This document shows, one piece after another, positions 2,419 to 42,539 of a DNA stretch of 64,000 nt. The stretch covers positions 1-64,000 of the forward strand of contig JASJDM010000006.1 in the NCBI GenBank assembly GCA_030065125.1, read 5' to 3'. The stretch's first letter is position 1, and every line of letters starts with the position of its first letter. The notes under the pieces were generated by a model. The model had not been told where the DNA came from. It saw only the letters and a list, made by a program, of their open reading frames with translations, and ran no database searches. Position numbers and translations under genes: made by a program. The stretch comes from Lysobacterales bacterium (lineage in GTDB: Bacteria > Pseudomonadota > Gammaproteobacteria > Xanthomonadales > SZUA-38).

Positions 2419-3330
2419 ATGGGCGGCGGCCACCACCATCACCATCCTGAGCAGGGCGATCGCCAGGTTCTCTGGGCAGTCGTCGTCAACCTGGTTCTCA
2501 CCGCCGCCCAGATGATCGGCGGCCTGCTGTCAGGCAGCCTCGCCCTGCTGGCTGACGCGGTGCACAACCTGAGTGATGCCCTGGCCCTGGGCATTGCCTT
2601 CGCCGCGCGCAGGATCGCGCGGCTGCCGTCCAACCATCGCATGACCTTCGGCTACGTCAGGGCCGAGCTGGTGGCCGCCCTGATCAACTACACCACGCTG
2701 ATCGTGATTGGCCTTACCCTGGTGTACCAGGCTTTCTGGCGCTTTTTTGAGCCCTCCCCTATCAACGGCTGGATGGTGGTGATCATCGCCGGCCTGGCGC
2801 TGGTGGTTGACCTGGTAACCGCTGCGCTGACCTGGCGGCTGTCTCGGGAAAGCATCAATATCCGGGCAGCATTCCTGCACAACGTCGCGGATGCACTGGG
2901 CTCAATCGGGGTGATCCTGGCGGGGACCGTCATCATCGTCTGGCAGTGGAACCTGATCGATCCGCTGATCACCCTGGCCATCGCCGGTTACATCCTGTGG
3001 CACGCTCTTTCGGAAATCGGCCAGGTCATCCGCATGCTGATGCTGGGTACGCCGGACGACGTGGACCTGACTGAACTGGTCCTGGAAGTGGAGCGGCTGG
3101 AGGGTGTGGAGGGCCTGCATCATGTCCACGTCTGGAATCTGCATGAACACCAGAAATCCCTGGAGGGCCACCTGGTGGTGGCTGACGCCAACTGGGACCG
3201 GGCCGAAACCATCAAACAATCCGTCCGGGCCTGCCTTCGCGAGCGCTTTGATATCGGGCACACCACGCTGGAGCTTGAGGCCCAGACCAGCCCCTGCCAC
3301 GACGGCGGCCTCAGCCTGGGCTCCACCTGA
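2419..3330 (+). CDS. cation diffusion facilitator (CDF) family divalent-metal efflux transporter
   Basis: Six transmembrane segments and CDF signature regions (HNLSDALALGIAF, a conserved Asp in TM5, and a C-terminal cytoplasmic domain). The N-terminus is His-rich (MGGGHHHHHPEQ). Confidence 0.85.
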   Translation: MGGGHHHHHPEQGDRQVLWAVVVNLVLTAAQMIGGLLSGSLALLADAVHNLSDALALGIAFAARRIARLPSNHRMTFGYVRAELVAALINYTTLIVIGLTLVYQAFWRFFEPSPINGWMVVIIAGLALVVDLVTAALTWRLSRESINIRAAFLHNVADALGSIGVILAGTVIIVWQWNLIDPLITLAIAGYILWHALSEIGQVIRMLMLGTPDDVDLTELVLEVERLEGVEGLHHVHVWNLHEHQKSLEGHLVVADANWDRAETIKQSVRACLRERFDIGHTTLELEAQTSPCHDGGLSLGST

Positions 3331-24072: not shown

Positions 24073-27000
24073 TTAACGGGCGCTGATGCCAATCCGCTTC
24101 CACAACAGGAACACTGCGGGCAGCAGCACCAGGGCCAGCAGGGTCGCACTGATCATGCCGCCCACCATCGGCGCGGCAATGCGTCGCATCACCTCGGACC
24201 CTGTGCCCGATCCAAACATGATGGGGAGCAGTCCGGCGATAGTGGCAATGACCGTCATCAGGATCGGCCGCAGCCTCAGCAGTGCCCCTTCCACCACAGA
24301 CTCCTGCAGCAGCGCCTCGGTTAACACACCGTCAGCAGCCTGAACCCGTTCCTCCAGCGCCTGTTTGAGGTAAACCAGCATTACTACGCCGATCTCCACG
24401 GCAACACCGGCCAGGGCGATGAAGCCCACACCCACGGCGACGGAAAAGTTGTAATCCAGCAGGAACAGCAGCCAGATTCCGCCCACCAGAGCCATGGGCA
24501 GGGTTCCCAGGATGATCAGCACCTCACCCAGGCTGCGGAAATTGATGAACAACAGCATGATGATGCTGACGATGGTCATGGGCACCATTACCACCAGGCG
24601 CTTACCCGCGCGCTCCAGGTATTCGTACTGACCTGACCACCGGATCGAGTAGCCCGCGGGCAGATCCAGCCTCTGCCCCACCGCGGCCTGGGCATCACCC
24701 ACGTAAGTGCCGAGGTCCACGTCCGAATCGATGTCCACAAATACCCAGCCATTCGGGCGGGCATTTTCGCTCTTGATGACCGGGGCCCCGTCCTCGATCC
24801 GGATGTCCGCAACCTGGGACAGCGTGATCTCCTCGCCCGCCGGTGTAATCACCGGCAGGTTGCGGATGCGCTCCAGGGAATTGCGCACGTCGTGGGGATA
24901 GCGGACGTTAACCGGGTACCGCTCCAGGCCTTCGACCGTGGTGGTCACGTTCATGCCGCCAATGGCCGTTCGCACCACGTCCTGGACGGAATTGATATTG
25001 AGGCCAAAGCGGGAGGCTTCCATACGATTAACGTCGACGGTCAGGTAGCGACCGCCCGCCGAGCGCTCGGCGAATACCGAGGCGGTCCCAGGCACGTCTT
25101 TCAGTACTTTTTCGAGATCCACGCCAATGGACTCGATCACCGACAGGTCAGGGCCGGCAATCTTCAGGCCCACCGGAGTCTTGATCCCGGTGGCCAGCAT
25201 GTCGATGCGTGTCTTGATGGGCCATACCCAGGCATTGGTCAGCCCCGGGATCTTGACGCGCGCGTCCAGTTCGGACCGGATGTCATCCATGGACACTCCC
25301 GGGCGCCACTGCTCCCGGGGTTTCAGCCGGATCAGGGTTTCGATCATAGTCAGGGGCGCCGGGTCGGTGGCCGTCTCCGCCCGGCCGATTTTTCCAAAAA
25401 CGGTCTGCACTTCCGGCACGGTGCGGATCAGCTTGTCGGTCTGCTGCAGCAGTTCCTGGGCCTTGCCGATGGAAAGTCCGGGAAAGGTGGTGGGCATGTA
25501 CATCAGGTCACCCTCGTCCAGGTCCGGCATGAATTCGCTGCCGATCCGGCCCAGCGGCCAGAAACCCACCACGACCACCACCACAGCCGTGACGGTGACC
25601 AGGCCCGGACGCCGGGTCAGCAGGGCCACCACGGGCTGATAGAGCCAGGTGAAAAAGCGGCTGAGGGGATTGCGCGTTTCGCTCACCAGCCGTCCCCGAA
25701 CGAAATACCCCATCAAGACTGGCACCAGAGTGATCGACAGCCCGGCCGCGGCGGCCATGGCATAGGACTTGGTGAATGCCAGCGGTGAAAACAGCCGCCC
25801 TTCCTGAGCCTGCAGCGCGAATACCGGCAGGAAACTGACGGTAATGATGAGCAGCGAAAAGAATACCGGCGGGCCCACCCTGGCGGCGGCCCGGCTTACC
25901 GTTCGCCAGTGGTGCCGGGGGTCGTAGTCGTCCCGCTCCATCATCTTGTGCAGGGTTTCCACCATGACGATGGCCGCGTCCACCATGGTGCCGATGGCGA
26001 TGGCAATGCCCCCCAGAGACATGATGTTGGCGTTCAGGCCCTGGGCCTGCATCACCGCGAAGGCCGCCAGGATGCCCAGCGGCAGGCTGATAATGATGAC
26101 CAGCGACGACCGCAGGTGGATCAGGAACACGGCGCACACCAGGACCACGATGAGCATTTCTTCCAGCAGTTTTTCGGTCACCGTAGACACGGCGCGATCG
26201 ATCAGGCTGGAGCGGTCATAGGCCTCCACGATTTCCACGCCTTCGGGAAGGCCGCTGGCCAGTTGTTCCAGCTTCTGCTTGACCGCGGCAATGGTGTCCC
26301 GGGCGTTTTCGCCAGAGCGCATGACCACGATGCCACCAACAGCCTCGCCTTCCCCGTCCAGTTCCGCGATGCCGCGTCGCATCTGCGGGCCAACCCGAAC
26401 GGACGCAACATCACGCAGCAGCACCGGGGTGCCGTTTTTGCCCAGCCCCAGCGGTATCTGTTCCAGGTCCGCCACCGAATCCAGGTATCCCGTGGCCCTG
26501 ACCATGTACTCGGCCTCGCCCATTTCAACCACCGAGCCGCCGCTCTCCTGGTTGCCCTGCTGGATGGCCATGCGCACCCGGTCCAGCGGCAGGCCGTGGG
26601 CGCTGAGCGCTTCGGGCCTGAGCACTACCTGGTACTGCCGCACCATGCCGCCGACGGTGGCGATTTCAGCCACGCCGGGCACCGACTGCAGTTCGAATTT
26701 CAGAAACCAATCCTGCAATGAGCGCAGCTGGGCCAGGTCGTGTCGGCCGCTGCGATCCACCAGGGCATACTCGTAGATCCAGCCAACGCCGGTGGCATCG
26801 GGCCCCAGCATCGGCTGCACCCCGGGCGGCAGGCTCCCAGATACCTGGTTCAGGTATTCCAGAACCCGGGACCGCGCCCAGTAGAGGTCGGTGCCATCCT
26901 CGAAAATCACATAAACGTAGGAGTCACCGAAAAAGGAATAGGCCCGCACGGTCTGGGCGTAGGGCACCGACAGCATGGCGGTGGCCAGTGGATAGGTCAC

Positions 27001-27192
27001 CTGGTCCTCCACAACCCTGGGCGCCTGACCGGGATAGGAGGTCTTGACGATGACCTGGACGTCCGACAGGTCTGGAATGGCGTCGACCGGGGTCTGCATG
27101 TACGCATAGCTGCCCCAGCCGGCCAGCACAAGGCTCAGCAGGACGACCAGGAACCGGTTGTGAACCGACCAGCGAATGACGGATTCGATCAT
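24073..27192 (-). CDS. CusA/CzcA family heavy-metal efflux RND pump
   Basis: 1039 aa with 12 transmembrane segments and two large periplasmic loops. The N-terminus MIESVIRWSVHNRFLVVLLSLVLAGWG is characteristic of the HME-RND family. Last gene of a four-gene operon on the minus strand. Confidence 0.93.
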   Translation of the reverse strand: MIESVIRWSVHNRFLVVLLSLVLAGWGSYAYMQTPVDAIPDLSDVQVIVKTSYPGQAPRVVEDQVTYPLATAMLSVPYAQTVRAYSFFGDSYVYVIFEDGTDLYWARSRVLEYLNQVSGSLPPGVQPMLGPDATGVGWIYEYALVDRSGRHDLAQLRSLQDWFLKFELQSVPGVAEIATVGGMVRQYQVVLRPEALSAHGLPLDRVRMAIQQGNQESGGSVVEMGEAEYMVRATGYLDSVADLEQIPLGLGKNGTPVLLRDVASVRVGPQMRRGIAELDGEGEAVGGIVVMRSGENARDTIAAVKQKLEQLASGLPEGVEIVEAYDRSSLIDRAVSTVTEKLLEEMLIVVLVCAVFLIHLRSSLVIIISLPLGILAAFAVMQAQGLNANIMSLGGIAIAIGTMVDAAIVMVETLHKMMERDDYDPRHHWRTVSRAAARVGPPVFFSLLIITVSFLPVFALQAQEGRLFSPLAFTKSYAMAAAAGLSITLVPVLMGYFVRGRLVSETRNPLSRFFTWLYQPVVALLTRRPGLVTVTAVVVVVVGFWPLGRIGSEFMPDLDEGDLMYMPTTFPGLSIGKAQELLQQTDKLIRTVPEVQTVFGKIGRAETATDPAPLTMIETLIRLKPREQWRPGVSMDDIRSELDARVKIPGLTNAWVWPIKTRIDMLATGIKTPVGLKIAGPDLSVIESIGVDLEKVLKDVPGTASVFAERSAGGRYLTVDVNRMEASRFGLNINSVQDVVRTAIGGMNVTTTVEGLERYPVNVRYPHDVRNSLERIRNLPVITPAGEEITLSQVADIRIEDGAPVIKSENARPNGWVFVDIDSDVDLGTYVGDAQAAVGQRLDLPAGYSIRWSGQYEYLERAGKRLVVMVPMTIVSIIMLLFINFRSLGEVLIILGTLPMALVGGIWLLFLLDYNFSVAVGVGFIALAGVAVEIGVVMLVYLKQALEERVQAADGVLTEALLQESVVEGALLRLRPILMTVIATIAGLLPIMFGSGTGSEVMRRIAAPMVGGMISATLLALVLLPAVFLLWKRIGISAR

Positions 27193-28415
27193 GGCCTTTG
27201 CCCCAGCCGGCGGATCGCACCGGAAACACTGGCTTCGGAATCGATCAGGAACTGAGCCGACACCACGACCTCGGTGCCCTCGTCCAGGCCTTCACGGATT
27301 TCCACCCAGTCTCCGCTCTCGATCCCGGCCACCACTTCGTGCACCCGGAATCGGCCATCTCCCAGGGCCACCACCACCCGGTCCGCTCGGCCGCTGCGTA
27401 TCAGTGCCTCGCGCGGAATGCTGAGGACATCATTGCGGGCGCCGCCGAAGATGGTCACCCGGCTGAACATGTTTGGTCGGAGGCGACCGTCGGAATTGGG
27501 AACCTCGATGCGTACTGGCAGGGTGCGCGTCTTCGGGTCCAGGATGGGACTGACGAAGGCCACCTGCCCTTCGAAGACATCGCCCGGTATCGCACCGAAG
27601 CGGGCTTCCGCCGGCTGCCCCTGCCGGACCCAGTCAAGCCGGGATTCCGGCACCGCCGCGTGAATCCAGACCTGGGACAGGTCGGCCAGGCTGATGGCGT
27701 GGGTTTCCGGCATCACATGCATGCCCTCGAAAACATTCAGCGCAATCACCACCCCGTCCTGGGGCGCGATGACGGCCACGGTTTCCGACGGCGACCCACG
27801 TTGCGCAAGTGCCCGGATGTCGCTGCCAATCATTCCCAGGGCCCCAAGCTTCTCGACCGCCGCGTCGATCATCTCTTCGTCGCCGCGGCGCCTGGCCAGC
27901 AGGTATTCCTTCTGGGCGTTGACCAGTTCCGGTGAGTACAGCTCGAACAACAACTGTCCCCGGGTGACTGATTCTCCCAGGGTCTTGATCTGCAGCGACT
28001 GGATCCAGCCACGGATTCGGACGTGAACGTGGCCGACGCGGTTTTCGTCCGGACCCACGCTGCCCGTGGCATCAATCTTCCGCCACAGCCGGCCTTTCCC
28101 GGCTGGCGCCGTGCGAACGCCGATGTTCTGCTCCACCACCGGCGAGATTTCCACCGCGTCTGCACCCACTTCGTCGGCATATACCGGAACCAGGTCCATG
28201 CCCATGGGTGACTTGCCCGGCTCATCCCGGCGGTAGTTCGCATCCATGGGAGCAACCCAGTAGAGGATCTCACGTTCCGCGGGTTGCCCCGACGGCTCCT
28301 GGCCGTGTGGCCCCGCGCCCAGCAGCCCCAGGCGGGCTTCCAGCAGTACCCCCGCAACCAGTGCCACACCAATTCCGGCGATCACTGCGACGGTCTTCGA
28401 TGTCTCTGTACTCAC
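27189..28415 (-). CDS. efflux RND periplasmic adaptor (membrane-fusion protein), CusB/CzcB-like
   Basis: 408 aa. N-terminal transmembrane segment, biotinyl/lipoyl-like and beta-barrel MFP regions. 4-nt overlaps with both neighbours. Confidence 0.88.
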   Translation of the reverse strand: MSTETSKTVAVIAGIGVALVAGVLLEARLGLLGAGPHGQEPSGQPAEREILYWVAPMDANYRRDEPGKSPMGMDLVPVYADEVGADAVEISPVVEQNIGVRTAPAGKGRLWRKIDATGSVGPDENRVGHVHVRIRGWIQSLQIKTLGESVTRGQLLFELYSPELVNAQKEYLLARRRGDEEMIDAAVEKLGALGMIGSDIRALAQRGSPSETVAVIAPQDGVVIALNVFEGMHVMPETHAISLADLSQVWIHAAVPESRLDWVRQGQPAEARFGAIPGDVFEGQVAFVSPILDPKTRTLPVRIEVPNSDGRLRPNMFSRVTIFGGARNDVLSIPREALIRSGRADRVVVALGDGRFRVHEVVAGIESGDWVEIREGLDEGTEVVVSAQFLIDSEASVSGAIRRLGQRP

Positions 28416-29686
28416 GGCGTTTCTCCCTGCAGGTAGATGAGACGTGCCTGGGCCTTCAGCAGATCGGCCCGGACCCTGGCCTGTCCCAGGGCAATATCGA
28501 ACTCGGTGAGATGGGCGCGCATGAGCGCGGTGAAATCGCTGACGCCAGAGCGATAACCGCTCAGCGCTGCCTCGCTGTTGGCGGAAGCCTCGGGCAACAG
28601 GCGGTCCCGGTACAGTTTCAGTTGACGCTGAAGGCTCTCCAACGTGGCCCAGTCCCGCTCCACGGATCGCACCATCTGCCTGAGCACGTCCTGCCTGCCC
28701 GCGGCCACGGCTTCCACCTCGTGCAGCCGGGCCGCCAGTTCCCGGTCCTGCCGCTTCTCCCGAAACACCGGCAGGTCGACCAGCAGCATGGCGCTGAGGA
28801 AATCGGCCCGGGCACTGCCGTCGGGGTTCTGACCGGAGCGGTCTCCGTAGGTCAGATCCACGGTGAATCCTGGCTTGTACTGCTGGCGGGCCACGTCCAC
28901 ACCAAGCTCCGCCGCCTGCACCTGTCCGCTCAGGGCCTGGATGCCGGGATGATCGGGTAACCCAGCGTTAAGCTGCTCGGCGGGAACCGGCGCCGGTATC
29001 TGCGGCCACCCGTCGCCCGCTACGCGATAGGCCTCATCGCCAACCCAGATCGCCAGCCTGGCGTAGGCACGGTTCAGTGCCTCTTCGGACCGGCTGATGC
29101 GTTCCTCCACACGCGACCGCTCCAGTTCCGCCCGGTAGACGTCCTGCTGGAGGCCGCGACCGGCGGCGTAGCCATCCCGCGCCGCCTCGAACGCTTCCTG
29201 CAGGGTATCCCGCGAGCTTTCAAGAATGCCAAGAACGTGCTGCTGGTAAACCACGTCCAGGTAATCCTGGCGCACATCCCGCAGTACTTTCAGTCTGCGG
29301 TCGGACGCCTGATAGCCGACGGCATTGGACTGGGCCTCCAACTGGCTGGCCCGGATGGCCCGGGACCGTCCCGGAGGGATACGCTGGCGCAGACCCACCT
29401 GGAGCTGGGTCATCGGCTCCTGGTCCAGGTCAAAAGTATCCAGCGGCAATGCAGCCGTTCCCAGCTTCAATACCGGATCAGGCAGCTGTGCCGCGGCGAT
29501 GGAACGCTCATCCAGTGCGCTCGCCCGGGCGGCAAATTTCCGCACTCCAGGCTCATCGTCCAGCGCCAGCCGTTCAGCTTTATCCAGGCTTAGATCCTGG
29601 CCTGGAGCCGGACCTGTGAGCAACAGCCCGGCAAATATTGTCAGCAGCATCCAGGGCATGCCTGGACCCATTTCTGATGATCTCAT
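28412..29686 (-). CDS. TolC-family outer membrane factor (CusC/CzcC-like)
   Basis: 424 aa with a signal peptide and two OEP repeats with coiled coils. Confidence 0.85.
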   Translation of the reverse strand: MRSSEMGPGMPWMLLTIFAGLLLTGPAPGQDLSLDKAERLALDDEPGVRKFAARASALDERSIAAAQLPDPVLKLGTAALPLDTFDLDQEPMTQLQVGLRQRIPPGRSRAIRASQLEAQSNAVGYQASDRRLKVLRDVRQDYLDVVYQQHVLGILESSRDTLQEAFEAARDGYAAGRGLQQDVYRAELERSRVEERISRSEEALNRAYARLAIWVGDEAYRVAGDGWPQIPAPVPAEQLNAGLPDHPGIQALSGQVQAAELGVDVARQQYKPGFTVDLTYGDRSGQNPDGSARADFLSAMLLVDLPVFREKRQDRELAARLHEVEAVAAGRQDVLRQMVRSVERDWATLESLQRQLKLYRDRLLPEASANSEAALSGYRSGVSDFTALMRAHLTEFDIALGQARVRADLLKAQARLIYLQGETP

Positions 29687-39621: not shown

Positions 39622-39883
39622 ATCAGTATTTGACAGCGCAGTTTACGCGCAGAATGCCAACAACTGTGAACCGCAATTGTGTTTAAAACAATTTTTGCGG
39701 CAACGTGAACTGCAGCACAGAAAATTCTGTGCTTGTGAATTGTCATGACTCATCAGGCATTTAACGAGAGGTTCACAACCAGTAGGTGAGAATGCGCTCT
39801 ATTGTGGACGAGCAAACGGCATTTTTTCCGGTGCGGACCGGCTTGAACCGACAACCGCATGGGTCCATGATGAATGAGCCTTT

Positions 39884-40126
39884 GTGAGGGAGGCAATAAT
39901 GATAAATAACGCTACCGTCGCTGCCTGCAGCTGCGGCCGCACCAGGTCCGAAGTCGGGATGGTTCAAATCCTGGCCGGGGTTGGCGTCGGCGCCGCCGCC
40001 GGGCTTTTCCTGATTCCCCTGACCGTCGTTGTCATGGTGGCCGCCGCAGCCATCGCGGGATTCAGGCGAATTGTCAAAACGCCAGCGTCCGGTTCGGCCA
40101 CAGCCCAGCTGCCCGGCCAGGCCTGA
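39884..40126 (+). CDS. small membrane protein with CSCGR motif, paralog 1 (unknown family)
   Basis: 80 aa from GTG. An alternative ATG at 39899 is preceded by a perfect SD GGGAGG. N-terminal AACSCGR followed by a roughly 35-residue Gly/Ala/Val-rich hydrophobic hairpin with a central PLT. High GC3. Terminator hairpin at 40152..40180. Confidence 0.6.
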   Translation: MREAIMINNATVAACSCGRTRSEVGMVQILAGVGVGAAAGLFLIPLTVVVMVAAAAIAGFRRIVKTPASGSATAQLPGQA

Positions 40127-40151
40127 GTCCAGCCTCATCGGCTGGAAACTC

Positions 40152-40180
40152 ACTCTCCGCCAGGAGAGTTGGTGCTTTTC
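40152..40180 (+). terminator. intrinsic terminator after small CSCGR gene 1
   Basis: Stem ACTCTCC / GGAGAGT with loop GCCA, followed by TGGTGCTTTTC. Confidence 0.5.
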
Positions 40181-40600
40181 ACACCCCCGAATCAACCAGA
40201 AGCTGCCAGACCGCGGCCCCTCCGGGTTCCCTGCGCCGGGATTTAATTCCTACAAATATATTTCTAATCAATTGGTTACAAACCGTTTCGTGACCGGGAC
40301 CTCAAAGCTCGGCAGAATGTAACTGTTTTTTCTGAAAATTTAACAAGATATTGGTATGATCTACTTCCAACATCACAGGATGTTGGGTACCGGCGTCATC
40401 GATTCTGGAACTTCAAAACGGCCGAACCAATCGAAAGGGGCAGACCGATTCTCGGCCTCCAGAGGCACTCCTCCCCCAATTTCCTACCCTCCCGGCGCGG
40501 CCCTGCGGGCCGAACCCGACAGATTTCATGATCTGTTCGTCAGGATGGCGCGGAAATTGCTTGCTTCAAGACAGAGACCGGATTAACCGAGATAATAATT

Positions 40601-40858
40601 ATGAAAGAGGCGATCCAAAACTGCAGCTGTGGCAGACAAAGTGGTCAGGTCAATTTTGGGCTCCTGCTTGGAGGCGTTGCCGTAGGAGCCCTGGCCGGCC
40701 TGATTTTCCTGCCACTTACCGCCCTGTTCCTGGGCGTTCTGGCCATTTTGTACATCACCAGGGCCGTCATCCGATGGGCGTCCGGCGGTTCGAAAGGACA
40801 GCCAAGCCTGGAAATGACAGCCATCACCCAGGAACTGTCGGCAGCGTCAAAAAAATGA
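40601..40858 (+). CDS. small membrane protein with CSCGR motif, paralog 2 (unknown family)
   Basis: 85 aa. MKEAIQNCSCGR followed by a hydrophobic hairpin (GLLLGGVAVGALAGLIFLPLTALFLGVLAILYIT). Homologous to 39884..40126 at both protein and nucleotide level (ATGAAAGAGGCGATC versus GTGAGGGAGGCAATA). Preceded by an AT-rich promoter-like island and a structured roughly 240-nt leader. Confidence 0.6.
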   Translation: MKEAIQNCSCGRQSGQVNFGLLLGGVAVGALAGLIFLPLTALFLGVLAILYITRAVIRWASGGSKGQPSLEMTAITQELSAASKK

Positions 40859-40976
40859 CGTAACCGCGCCAGGCCACACCGTCCGACTCCGGCGGGCGGG
40901 AAAACCACCTGCCCGGCCTCGCATTCCAACGTGAGCTGGGCTATAAACGTCGGCTTTCCCATGTCCAAGGCCGACC

Positions 40977-41792
40977 ATGCCCGAATCACATCTCCTCTCT
41001 GATCGCGTCCGAATTGAAATCGCCGACGGTGTTGCCGACGTCCGGTTGTGGCGACCCGACAAGCTTAACGCCCTGGACCAGGCCATGTTTGACGGGCTGA
41101 TGGCGGCTGCTGATCAGCTGTCCGGCACCCCCGGTCTGAGGGCAGTGGTCCTCTCCGGTGAAGGCCGATCGTTCTGTGCGGGCCTTGATATCAACGACCT
41201 GGCGGCCCAGCAGATTGGCCCGGAAGGGATCAAGGCGATGCTGCAGCCGGCAGAGGGTCAGCTGGCCAACCGTTTTCAACGGGTTGCTTACGACTGGAAA
41301 CAGCTGCCGGTGCCGGTGATCGCCGCGCTGCGGGGACATGTGTTTGGCGGCGGCCTGCAAATAGCGCTTGGGGCAGACATCCGCTACGCCGCCCCCGACG
41401 CGCGGCTGTCGGTCATGGAAATCCAGTGGGGAATCATTCCGGACATGGCGGGCAGCCAGACCCTGCGTGATCTGGTGCGTATCGACATCGCTCGGGAACT
41501 GACCTATTCCGGCCGCCGGATAGACGCAGAAGAGGCCGCCCGGATCGGCCTGGTCACCCGCCTGTGCGAAGACCCGCTGGCCGAGGCCCTGTCCACCGCG
41601 ACGGCTATTGCCAGTCGCAATCCCGACGCCATTCGGGCTGCCAAGCAACTTTTCAATCAGGCCTGGCATGGCGATGAGGCCGAAGGCCTGGCCCTGGAAC
41701 GCCAACTTCAGACAAACCTCCTGGGATCACCCAACCAGATGGAGGCCGTCATGGCCGGGATACAGAATCGCCCGGCCCGATTCCAGGACTAG
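40977..41792 (+). CDS. enoyl-CoA hydratase/isomerase (crotonase) family protein
   Basis: 271 aa with crotonase-fold motifs (AVVLSGEGRSFCAGLDI, and GHVFGGGLQIALGADIRYA forming the oxyanion hole). Confidence 0.88.
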   Translation: MPESHLLSDRVRIEIADGVADVRLWRPDKLNALDQAMFDGLMAAADQLSGTPGLRAVVLSGEGRSFCAGLDINDLAAQQIGPEGIKAMLQPAEGQLANRFQRVAYDWKQLPVPVIAALRGHVFGGGLQIALGADIRYAAPDARLSVMEIQWGIIPDMAGSQTLRDLVRIDIARELTYSGRRIDAEEAARIGLVTRLCEDPLAEALSTATAIASRNPDAIRAAKQLFNQAWHGDEAEGLALERQLQTNLLGSPNQMEAVMAGIQNRPARFQD

Positions 41793-41855
41793 CAGTCGGT
41801 CGGACTTAGGGAATCGAGGGGGAATCCTGGCTGCCTTTTTGCGGTCCAAGCATCC

Positions 41856-42539
41856 ATGGGATTGATCATTGTTGCATTGATACTGGTCATACTGGTGTTT
41901 GGCCCGAGCATCTGGGTGCAGCGGGTACTGAAGAAATACGCGGCCCCGGAGGACCGATACCCCGGCACCGGCGGCGAGCTGGCGCGGCACCTGCTGGACG
42001 GGCTGGATATGCAGTCCGTCCAGGTGGAAACCACCGAGGCCGGCGACCACTACGATCCGCTGGAAAAAGTGGTTCGCCTGACGCCCGACAAATTCAACGG
42101 TCGCTCCCTGACCGCCATTACCGTGGCCGCCCACGAGGTCGGACACGCCCTGCAGGATCGGGACGCATACGCCCCGCTGAGAATGCGCACCCGGCTGGTG
42201 CAGATGGCGCAGCCCGCGGAAAAGGCCGGCGCCGCCCTGCTGATGGCCGCACCTTTCCTGGTGATGTTGACCCGGGCTCCGGGGGCCGGCGGTCTGATGC
42301 TGTTGGGCGGCCTGCTGACCCTGGGCACCAGCACCCTGGTCCACCTGGTCACCCTGCCGACAGAACTGGACGCGAGCTTCAGGCGTGCCCTGCCCCTGCT
42401 GGTTCACGGCGAATACCTGGTGCCCGGCGATGAACGCCATGCGCGCCGGCTGCTGACCGCGGCCGCCCTGACCTATGTCTCGGGCTCACTCATGAGCCTG
42501 CTCAACATCGGCCGCTGGTGGGCCATCCTCCGACGGTAG
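41856..42539 (+). CDS. YugP-like zinc metallopeptidase (Zn_peptidase_2 family) membrane protein
   Basis: N-terminal transmembrane segment. HEVGHALQ zinc-binding motif. C-terminal transmembrane segments. 227 aa. Confidence 0.8.
   Translation: MGLIIVALILVILVFGPSIWVQRVLKKYAAPEDRYPGTGGELARHLLDGLDMQSVQVETTEAGDHYDPLEKVVRLTPDKFNGRSLTAITVAAHEVGHALQDRDAYAPLRMRTRLVQMAQPAEKAGAALLMAAPFLVMLTRAPGAGGLMLLGGLLTLGTSTLVHLVTLPTELDASFRRALPLLVHGEYLVPGDERHARRLLTAAALTYVSGSLMSLLNIGRWWAILRR

Follow-up and report, generated by a model that had tools for sequence, protein, structure and literature searches.

Paralogous CxCG glycine-zipper proteins and a conserved promoter-and-leader block in an uncultured Xanthomonadales-type gammaproteobacterium

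Small membrane proteins of bacteria often act as accessory subunits or modulators, and GxxxGxxxG motifs drive the packing of transmembrane helices. Here we describe two tandem paralogous genes (gene 1 and gene 2) for small hydrophobic proteins in which such a motif follows a C-x-C-G sequence, together with the conserved promoter-and-leader block that precedes gene 2. They lie in a stretch of 64,000 nucleotides (nt) from a Lysobacterales bacterium (contig JASJDM010000006.1 of assembly GCA_030065125.1, positions 1 to 64,000 of the forward strand), hereafter called the window, the coordinates of which are used throughout.

Several described systems share parts of this design. The entericidins EcnA and EcnB of enterobacteria are tandem small envelope paralogues, a proposed antidote/toxin pair in which the second gene has its own regulated promoter, and are lipoproteins of 41-48 amino acids (aa) with a signal peptide and a lipobox. 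The present proteins, too, are small envelope paralogues encoded in tandem, and gene 2 has a promoter of its own, but there is no lipobox and a transmembrane segment of 32-35 residues is predicted. The mRNAs of type I toxins (e.g. hok and tisB) encode a small hydrophobic protein behind a long 5′ untranslated region (5′UTR) and have a ribosome-binding site (RBS) that is weak or hard for ribosomes to reach, an arrangement that recurs in gene 2; unlike these toxins, the present proteins have 75-85 aa and a conserved Cys motif, a protein paralogue stands in the place of the RNA antitoxin, and Rfam gives no match. MerE and MerT of the mer operons are inner-membrane proteins of ~80 aa with a closely spaced, functional Cys pair in the first transmembrane helix; size, inner-membrane location and the close spacing of the Cys pair are common to both, whereas here the pair precedes the membrane segment and there is no mer context.

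The Cdz-like bacteriocins are proteins of 60-151 residues, with adjacent genes of about 80-85 aa; they are common in gammaproteobacteria, including Xylella, and comprise the contact-dependent CdzC/CdzD from Caulobacter (PMC5380434). They are recognized by a leader ending in G[G/A/S], an uninterrupted zipper flanked by Pro or charged residues and CdzAB-type secretion genes within ~10 kb (PMC5380434). The present proteins are similar in their lengths of 75 and 85 aa, which fall in this range, in the zipper GVxVGAxAG with a Pro 4 residues later and in their polar, basic tails; they differ in having neither a double-glycine-type leader nor linked type I secretion, a far lower Gly content and separate promoters. 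As far as sequence comparison goes, they are not members of the Cdz family, which is nevertheless the closest design found.

Paralogous proteins under selection

The paralogy of genes 1 and 2 is evident from BLASTP (37% identity over 71 aa, E=4e-12). The first-pass annotation of this DNA, which was made from the letters alone, had described two paralogous open reading frames (ORFs) that share a CSCGR motif, a combination that it did not recognize as a named family, and this has held up: both ORFs are where it placed them, CSCGR is found in each, and neither protein has a match in Pfam, NCBIfam, PHROGs, PADLOC or the PDB sequences. A HMMER profile search against 1.84 billion (1.84e9) representative proteins, a check which that annotation had proposed, returned four hits, namely gene 2 itself, a fragmentary call of gene 1, an orthologue of gene 1 (P0003, on contig L006) and an orthologue of gene 2 (P0004, on contig L007). 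Both proteins are conserved as coding genes in two further populations, and the family is known from three uncultured metagenomic populations only. An identical gene 2 protein is encoded by 5 contigs from several samples.

The orthologues align without gaps (P0003 with gene 1 at 49% identity over 75 aa, P0004 with gene 2 at 44% over 85 aa), although their synonymous divergence is saturated (dS 1.1-1.9). The ratio of non-synonymous to synonymous divergence (dN/dS) is 0.35 for gene 1 and 0.31 for gene 2, a Sortilin control giving 0.06, and the differences are distributed over the three codon positions as 26/20/41 and 40/29/55, respectively. The alternative frames of both genes contain stops. At the motif codons of the four genes, Cys is written TGC or TGT, Gly GGC, GGT or GGG and Arg CGC, CGG or AGA, and such synonymous changes show that selection acts on the amino acids. 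From the equal lengths, the lack of indels, the dN/dS of ~0.3 and the greatest variability at third positions, we conclude that both genes are translated and that their proteins evolve fast. Antisense ORFs (39773-40195 and 40645-40989, minus strand) were considered as real genes and rejected, since the bases that vary most are third positions of the plus-strand frame.

Each of the proteins consists of a short N-terminal tail with C-x-C-G, a hydrophobic segment with the zipper and a polar, basic tail. The columns that are invariant in all four are C8, C10, G11, L23, G25, V26, V28, G29, A30, A32, G33, P38 and R54, so that the conserved core is made of CxCG, of L-x-GVxVGAxAG (a GxxxGxxxG glycine zipper), of a Pro in mid-segment and of the first Arg after the hydrophobic stretch. 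The latter is free of charges over 32-35 residues, with the conserved Pro at its centre, and basic residues are commoner on its C-terminal side. Conservation of CSCGR elsewhere, which the first-pass annotation had proposed to check, is confirmed for C-x-C-G and not for the Arg, P0004 having CGCGA. The entericidin family (Pfam PF08085) matches neither protein at E up to 10, and a lipoprotein or signal peptide was rejected because no hydrophobic region precedes the Cys and the orthologue in L006 has Glu at position -1 (VAEC). MerE, MerT and MerF give no match through Pfam or NCBIfam, and the neighbours are unrelated to mer genes. Judging from these searches, the family defined by CxCG and the GVxVGAxAG zipper is undescribed.

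The promoter-and-leader block and other expression signals

When the window, L006 and L007 were aligned three ways and identities were set against those of shuffled sequences, the block preceding gene 2 (table 1) was 66-81% identical between pairs of loci, with a shuffle maximum of 55-60%, and the intergenic DNA flanking it was indistinguishable from shuffles (saturated background); the coding sequences, for comparison, share 64-72% of nucleotides between orthologues. The gene 2 promoter and the first ~100 nt of the leader are conserved more than either coding sequence. Common to the three loci are TTTTCTGAA..TTTAACA..TGnTAT(G/A)(A/G)T and, six nucleotides later, CCAACATC-loop-(G/C)ATGTTGG, followed by GGT(A/G)CCGG and by the second hairpin, GCCG...CGGC. 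In nhmmer searches the block matches only these loci (E 3e-45 to 3e-36). It occurs once in the window and is missing from 80 related loci (those around Sortilin-like genes in 80 species-representative, Xanthomonadales-type genomes, which were used for the synteny comparison), on which grounds a repeat, a mobile element and an integron attC site were rejected. It has no blastn match in plasmids and phages, and a covariance search of the leaders of the window, L006 and L007 against Rfam, suggested by the first-pass annotation, yielded no relevant match at E up to 10.

The AT-rich island that had been singled out as promoter-like is real (GC 0.35 at 40250-40349) and contains TATGAT at 40355-40360, but TTAACA, named along with it, is only 9 nt away and cannot be its -35; the putative promoter is of the extended -10 type. 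The 5′ hairpin begins no more than 1-2 nt from the transcription start, whose predicted position derives solely from that of the -10. Stem-loops at the 5′ terminus shield mRNAs from 5′-end-dependent decay, and ompA-type mRNAs carry a stabilizing one. The hairpin of gene 2 resembles the latter in being stable and in lying 1-2 nt from the predicted transcript start; it differs in that its arms are invariant in sequence, which would fit a protein operator as well. Indeed, as the arms never vary across the loci while the loop does, both a 5′ stabilizing stem-loop and a palindromic operator at +1 may be envisaged. Conservation reaches ~95 nt into the gene 2 transcript and two single-nucleotide polymorphisms (SNPs) within the population (40411 and 40438) fall in predicted unpaired regions, so that we lean towards a role at the RNA level. 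Across the 3 sequences, the consensus fold pairs 89% of cells and includes 4 pairs with changes on both sides. A CsrA site in the hairpin loop (ACAGGAUG) was discarded, as GGA is absent in L006 and L007.

Beyond the block, the remainder of the leader is 48% identical to the orthologous locus, within the shuffle range. The leader hairpins of the first-pass annotation, like the terminator hairpin that it assigned to gene 1, are all present; the one at 40498-40512 (CGGCCC-TGC-GGGCCG) has no counterpart in the orthologous leader. The weak Shine-Dalgarno (SD) sequence and the start codon of gene 2 lie in an invariant 19-mer (CCGAGATAATAATTATGAA, 40587-40605), which is identical in L007. A 76-aa upstream ORF (40356-40586), once a candidate leader peptide, turns out to be noncoding, its frame being shifted by one-nucleotide indels among the three loci, and minus-strand micro-ORFs change frame too. 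A pyrimidine-rich, G-poor tract (CTCCTCCCCCAATTTCCTACCCTCCC, 40458-40497) follows the second leader hairpin, and similar C/T-rich stretches with CCA(A/G)ATTT are seen in L006 and L007; a Rho-loading site is one possibility for the tract, an anti-SD-like sequence another.

Gene 1 has signals of its own. Both hexamers of its putative promoter and their 17-nt spacing are unchanged in L006, and the stretch from promoter to RBS is 67% identical there (shuffle mean 37%, maximum 59%), while similarity drops to background level further upstream; the promoter matches 8/12 consensus positions and was, on that account, missed by a consensus scan. Its position leaves a gene 1 5′UTR of only about 20 nt, in place of the structured leader of 240 nt (39640-39880) that the first-pass annotation had described. 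The GTGAAC/GTTCAC sites and the CCGCAA...TTGCGG palindrome that it listed there exist, but they are unconserved in the orthologous locus.

ATG 39899 is most likely the start of gene 1. It is the start, giving 75 aa, chosen by the metagenome gene caller in a 109-kb European Nucleotide Archive scaffold identical to the window (CHAS20-1_SAMN14350203 scaffold_33); the SD sequence is kept in L006, there 8 nt ahead of ATG; and, in the alignment, only this ATG gives the orthologues an equal spacing between Met and the first Cys, which is residue 10 of the two gene 1 proteins and residue 8 of the two gene 2 proteins. A start at GTG 39884, with its MREAI homology, was dropped on these grounds. Since GGGAGG lies inside the ORF that begins at GTG, the perfect SD sequence and the homology of the first codons (MREAI/MKEAI), both put forward earlier, are mutually exclusive; the gene 2 orthologue P0004 starts MNEPT, not MKEAI, and the resemblance is best read as a conserved SD sequence. 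The Met26 start used by the Prokaryotic Genome Annotation Pipeline (PGAP) was also discarded, as it is not kept in the L006 orthologue. The NCBI record MDJ0653210.1 (PGAP, from a Xanthomonadales metagenome-assembled genome, or MAG), labelled ‘Xanthomonadales bacterium’, holds gene 1 as a 55-aa fragment from Met26, without the CSCGR motif; no named NCBI record was found for gene 2.

A terminator-like site also follows the gene 1 orthologue in L006 (976-993, then TGGTTTTAAA). Genes 1 and 2 appear to be separate transcription units, and the independent expression signals proposed by the first-pass annotation are borne out by the conservation of both promoters, and of the terminator position after gene 1, in the orthologous loci. 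Gene 1 would be served by a sigma-70-like promoter, a ~20-nt 5′UTR, a strong SD sequence and its own terminator, and gene 2 by an extended -10 promoter and a ~235-nt leader with an 8-bp hairpin at its 5′ end and a weak SD sequence in an invariant, A/U-rich start region.

Table 1. Coordinates of the two genes and of the features assigned to their expression.
Feature	Sequence	Position in the window	Strand	Remarks
Gene 1 promoter	TTGAAC-N17-CATGAT	39843..39871	+	putative; conserved in L006
Gene 1 Shine-Dalgarno sequence	GGGAGG	39888..39893	+	5 nt before ATG 39899
Gene 1	begins MINNATVAACSCGR	39899..40126	+	75 aa; GTG 39884 alternative, 80 aa
Terminator-like hairpin and T-run after gene 1		40152..40179	+	L006 equivalent at homologous place
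Gene 2 promoter-and-leader block		40323..40464	+	three-way alignment; ~140 nt
Gene 2 extended -10 promoter	CTGAAA; TGgTATGAT	40332-40337; 40352-40360	+	putative; inside block
5′-terminal hairpin	CCAACATC-ACAG-GATGTTGG	40367-40386	+	8-bp stem; inside block
Second leader hairpin	GGCCGA...TCGGCC	40420-40457	+	inside block
Remaining gene 2 leader		40465..40600	+	whole leader ~235 nt
Gene 2	begins MKEAIQNCSCGR	40601..40858	+	85 aa
Conserved element across gene 2 stop	GCGTCAAAAAAATGACG ... GCGCCAG	40844..40872		L007 equivalent 688-714

The element across the gene 2 stop has 17 consecutive invariant bases in the alignment with L007, though dS is above 1.9. Read on the minus strand it is a 5-bp hairpin followed by T7, called terminator-like in the window and in L007, with conserved arms and a loop of 6 nt in one locus and of 3 nt in the other. 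It may end antisense transcription or insulate against it; downstream of the element the window has no minus-strand gene. The DNA between gene 1 and the divergent Sortilin-like gene contains, upstream of the gene 1 promoter, a palindrome (CCGCAATTGT...ACAATTTTTGCGG, 39671-39700) and a perfect 9+9 inverted repeat (AGCACAGAA/TTCTGTGCT, 39714-39733), neither of them conserved in L006, which may be operators of the Sortilin-like gene.

Distribution and neighbourhood

Nothing beyond the four HMMER hits came from a word-indexed search of 5.8 billion clusters, and there was no homologue near the Sortilin-like genes of the 80 species-representative genomes. No further homologues came from a DNA hairpin pattern run on metagenome and genome contigs, a protein-profile scan of metagenome and viral contigs or tblastn against plasmids; four viral hairpin hits were dismissed as chance terminators and weak tblastn hits upstream of Sortilin-like genes in two of the related loci (L027 and L053) as non-homologous. 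The equivalent of the block is found in L006 downstream of the gene 1 orthologue, so that the tandem arrangement is conserved. In L007, frame 2 of positions 1-55 reads ...KGGGQDARSHPSAGTSAS up to a stop, ending ~120 nt before the conserved block; this very short stretch might represent the C-terminus of a gene 1 orthologue, in which case the tandem order would be found in all three populations.

The genes around the pair encode a Sortilin/BNR protein, an enoyl-CoA hydratase, a Zn-peptidase, a DUF2207 protein and LemA, the adjacent Sortilin/BNR-type gene being 70-76% identical to genes of Xanthomonadales/Lysobacterales MAGs. In the window the interval between the Zn-peptidase and Sortilin-like genes (39622-41855) holds gene 1, gene 2 and the enoyl-CoA hydratase gene, and in the closest relatives (L086 4139-6000 and L054 4274-6000) it holds a single gene for a membrane protein of 533-536 aa of the tetratricopeptide repeat (TPR) type. 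The gene downstream of the small genes differs as well, being that of enoyl-CoA hydratase in the window and a convergent gene in L007.

Further away, an operon for a CusCBA/Czc-type efflux system of the resistance-nodulation-division (RND) class (outer-membrane factor, HlyD-family protein with a heavy-metal-binding domain and AcrB-family pump; 24073-29686) is found ~10-16 kb upstream, and a cation-diffusion-facilitator gene (2419-3330) ~37 kb upstream, neither of them counted as linked to the small genes. At the 3′ end of the Zn-peptidase gene (42422-42476) ten SNPs distinguish samples (L002 and L003 versus the window) and are spaced in multiples of 3, a pattern that suggests third-position changes in a short tract of recombination between strains.

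Competing explanations and significance

The explanation we favour, to which we would give an even chance, is that genes 1 and 2 form a lineage-restricted module of an uncultured Xanthomonadales-type gammaproteobacterium, made of paralogous inner-membrane proteins of 75-85 aa with zipper oligomers, a thiol site and leader control. The glycine zipper would join the proteins into homo- or hetero-oligomers, and oligomerization would bring the juxtamembrane cysteine pairs together to form a thiol-based site, whether metal-binding or of a disulfide/redox kind. For the stress-responsive expression and the cysteine-based metal or redox sensing that the first-pass annotation envisaged, the one pertinent observation is that C-x-C-G persists through synonymous codon changes. 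The output of gene 2 would be set at its leader, through mRNA stability that depends on the 5′ hairpin and/or through a factor that recognizes the conserved leader.

Several observations weigh against this explanation. For each protein AlphaFold predicts one continuous long helix at a low confidence (predicted local distance difference test score, pLDDT, 58-62), by which the two-helix hydrophobic hairpin drawn in the first-pass annotation is neither supported nor excluded, and the distribution of charges fits an N-out/C-in orientation or a hairpin alike; the cysteines may, accordingly, be periplasmic or cytoplasmic. Folding energies of the whole leaders are unremarkable (z = -1.07 and +0.45), as are the minimum free energy z-scores over leaders and block (-1.6 to +0.45), and the pair statistics of the three-sequence consensus fold are equalled by 26-31 of 500 shuffles, so that, with three populations known, the covariation which the first-pass annotation had wished to see analysed is suggestive at most. 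A DNA operator would account equally well for the invariant palindrome at +1. The G+C content at third codon positions (GC3) of gene 2 is 0.63, below that of six neighbouring genes (0.72-0.83), and with gene 1 at 0.73-0.74 the high GC3 once ascribed to both is not clearly genome-typical. Finally, no metal, redox or regulator gene is present among the linked neighbours.

Alternatively, the pair might be a membrane-active toxin and its antidote, or a tightly controlled toxic peptide of the entericidin or type I toxin kind, gene 2 being a membrane-damaging protein whose level would be held down by the long leader and weak RBS and which the well-translated gene 1 paralogue would neutralize in mixed oligomers. 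We regard this as unlikely, although small hydrophobic tandem paralogues with separate promoters, a strong SD sequence and short UTR in gene 1 as opposed to a 235-nt leader and weak SD sequence in gene 2, and a patchy, lineage-specific distribution coupled with fast protein evolution speak for it. The conserved minus-strand terminator-like element that adjoins the gene 2 stop could end an antisense RNA, but neither an antisense (minus-strand) promoter nor a conserved antisense region was found at the locus and no toxin or antitoxin RNA of Rfam matches; moreover, 75-85 aa exceeds the typical size of type I toxins, and lipobox and entericidin Pfam match are both lacking.

The proteins might also serve, like AcrZ, KdpF, CydX or MgrB, as accessory subunits or modulators of a larger membrane complex whose genes lie elsewhere, with the zipper docking on the transmembrane helices of a partner. 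Size, a single hydrophobic segment, the helix-packing motif and purifying selection would suit such a role, which we nevertheless hold to be distinctly unlikely: the pair has no conserved partner gene next to it, what follows downstream differing between the window and L007, and related genomes keep the neighbours yet are without the small genes.

A more specific proposal, which we offer as a speculation with little probability behind it, is that the block belongs to a new class of cis-regulatory RNA, in which the 5′ hairpin and a long-range stem enclosing the second hairpin would sense a metal, the thiol/redox state, a protein or a small RNA; the output would be the CxCG glycine-zipper protein, which would form with its constitutive paralogue an intermolecular four-cysteine site at the membrane surface.

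Largely refuted is a Cdz-like or two-peptide bacteriocin, i.e. two secreted glycine-zipper toxins that would leave the cell through a type I secretion system, despite two adjacent proteins of ~80 aa that share with CdzC/CdzD a short polar C-terminus and a zipper delimited by Pro or charged residues. The N-termini (MKEAIQNCSCGR and MINNATVAACSCGR) lack an M(R/K)EL...VSGG-type leader with G[G/A/S] at its end; a Pfam scan of every ORF of at least 500 aa in the 64-kb window revealed neither an ABC exporter nor a C39 peptidase, and the only HlyD-family protein (27189-28415) belongs to the CusCBA-type RND system. In addition, an hhalign profile comparison with 14 Cdz-like proteins returned a probability of 0.5% (E=0.12), and genes 1 and 2 appear not to be co-transcribed. 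That the conserved entity is RNA or DNA only and the reading frames are incidental, as the better conservation of the leader block, the low GC3 of gene 2 and the scant records (a 55-aa PGAP fragment for gene 1, none with a name for gene 2) might suggest, is scarcely credible given equal-length orthologues without frame-breaking indels at dS above 1, the most variable third positions, a dN/dS of ~0.3, synonymous changes at invariant Cys and Gly codons, a canonical SD sequence ahead of gene 1 and an antisense frame with the wrong codon-position pattern.

Unless a phenotype or a ligand comes to light, the wider significance of the family is limited by there being only three uncultured populations and no linked function. 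Annotation of small membrane proteins is poor, as is well illustrated here by a PGAP gene 1 that is a 55-aa fragment without the conserved motif, and a control region under tighter conservation than its protein products is a concrete, testable candidate for a new leader element.

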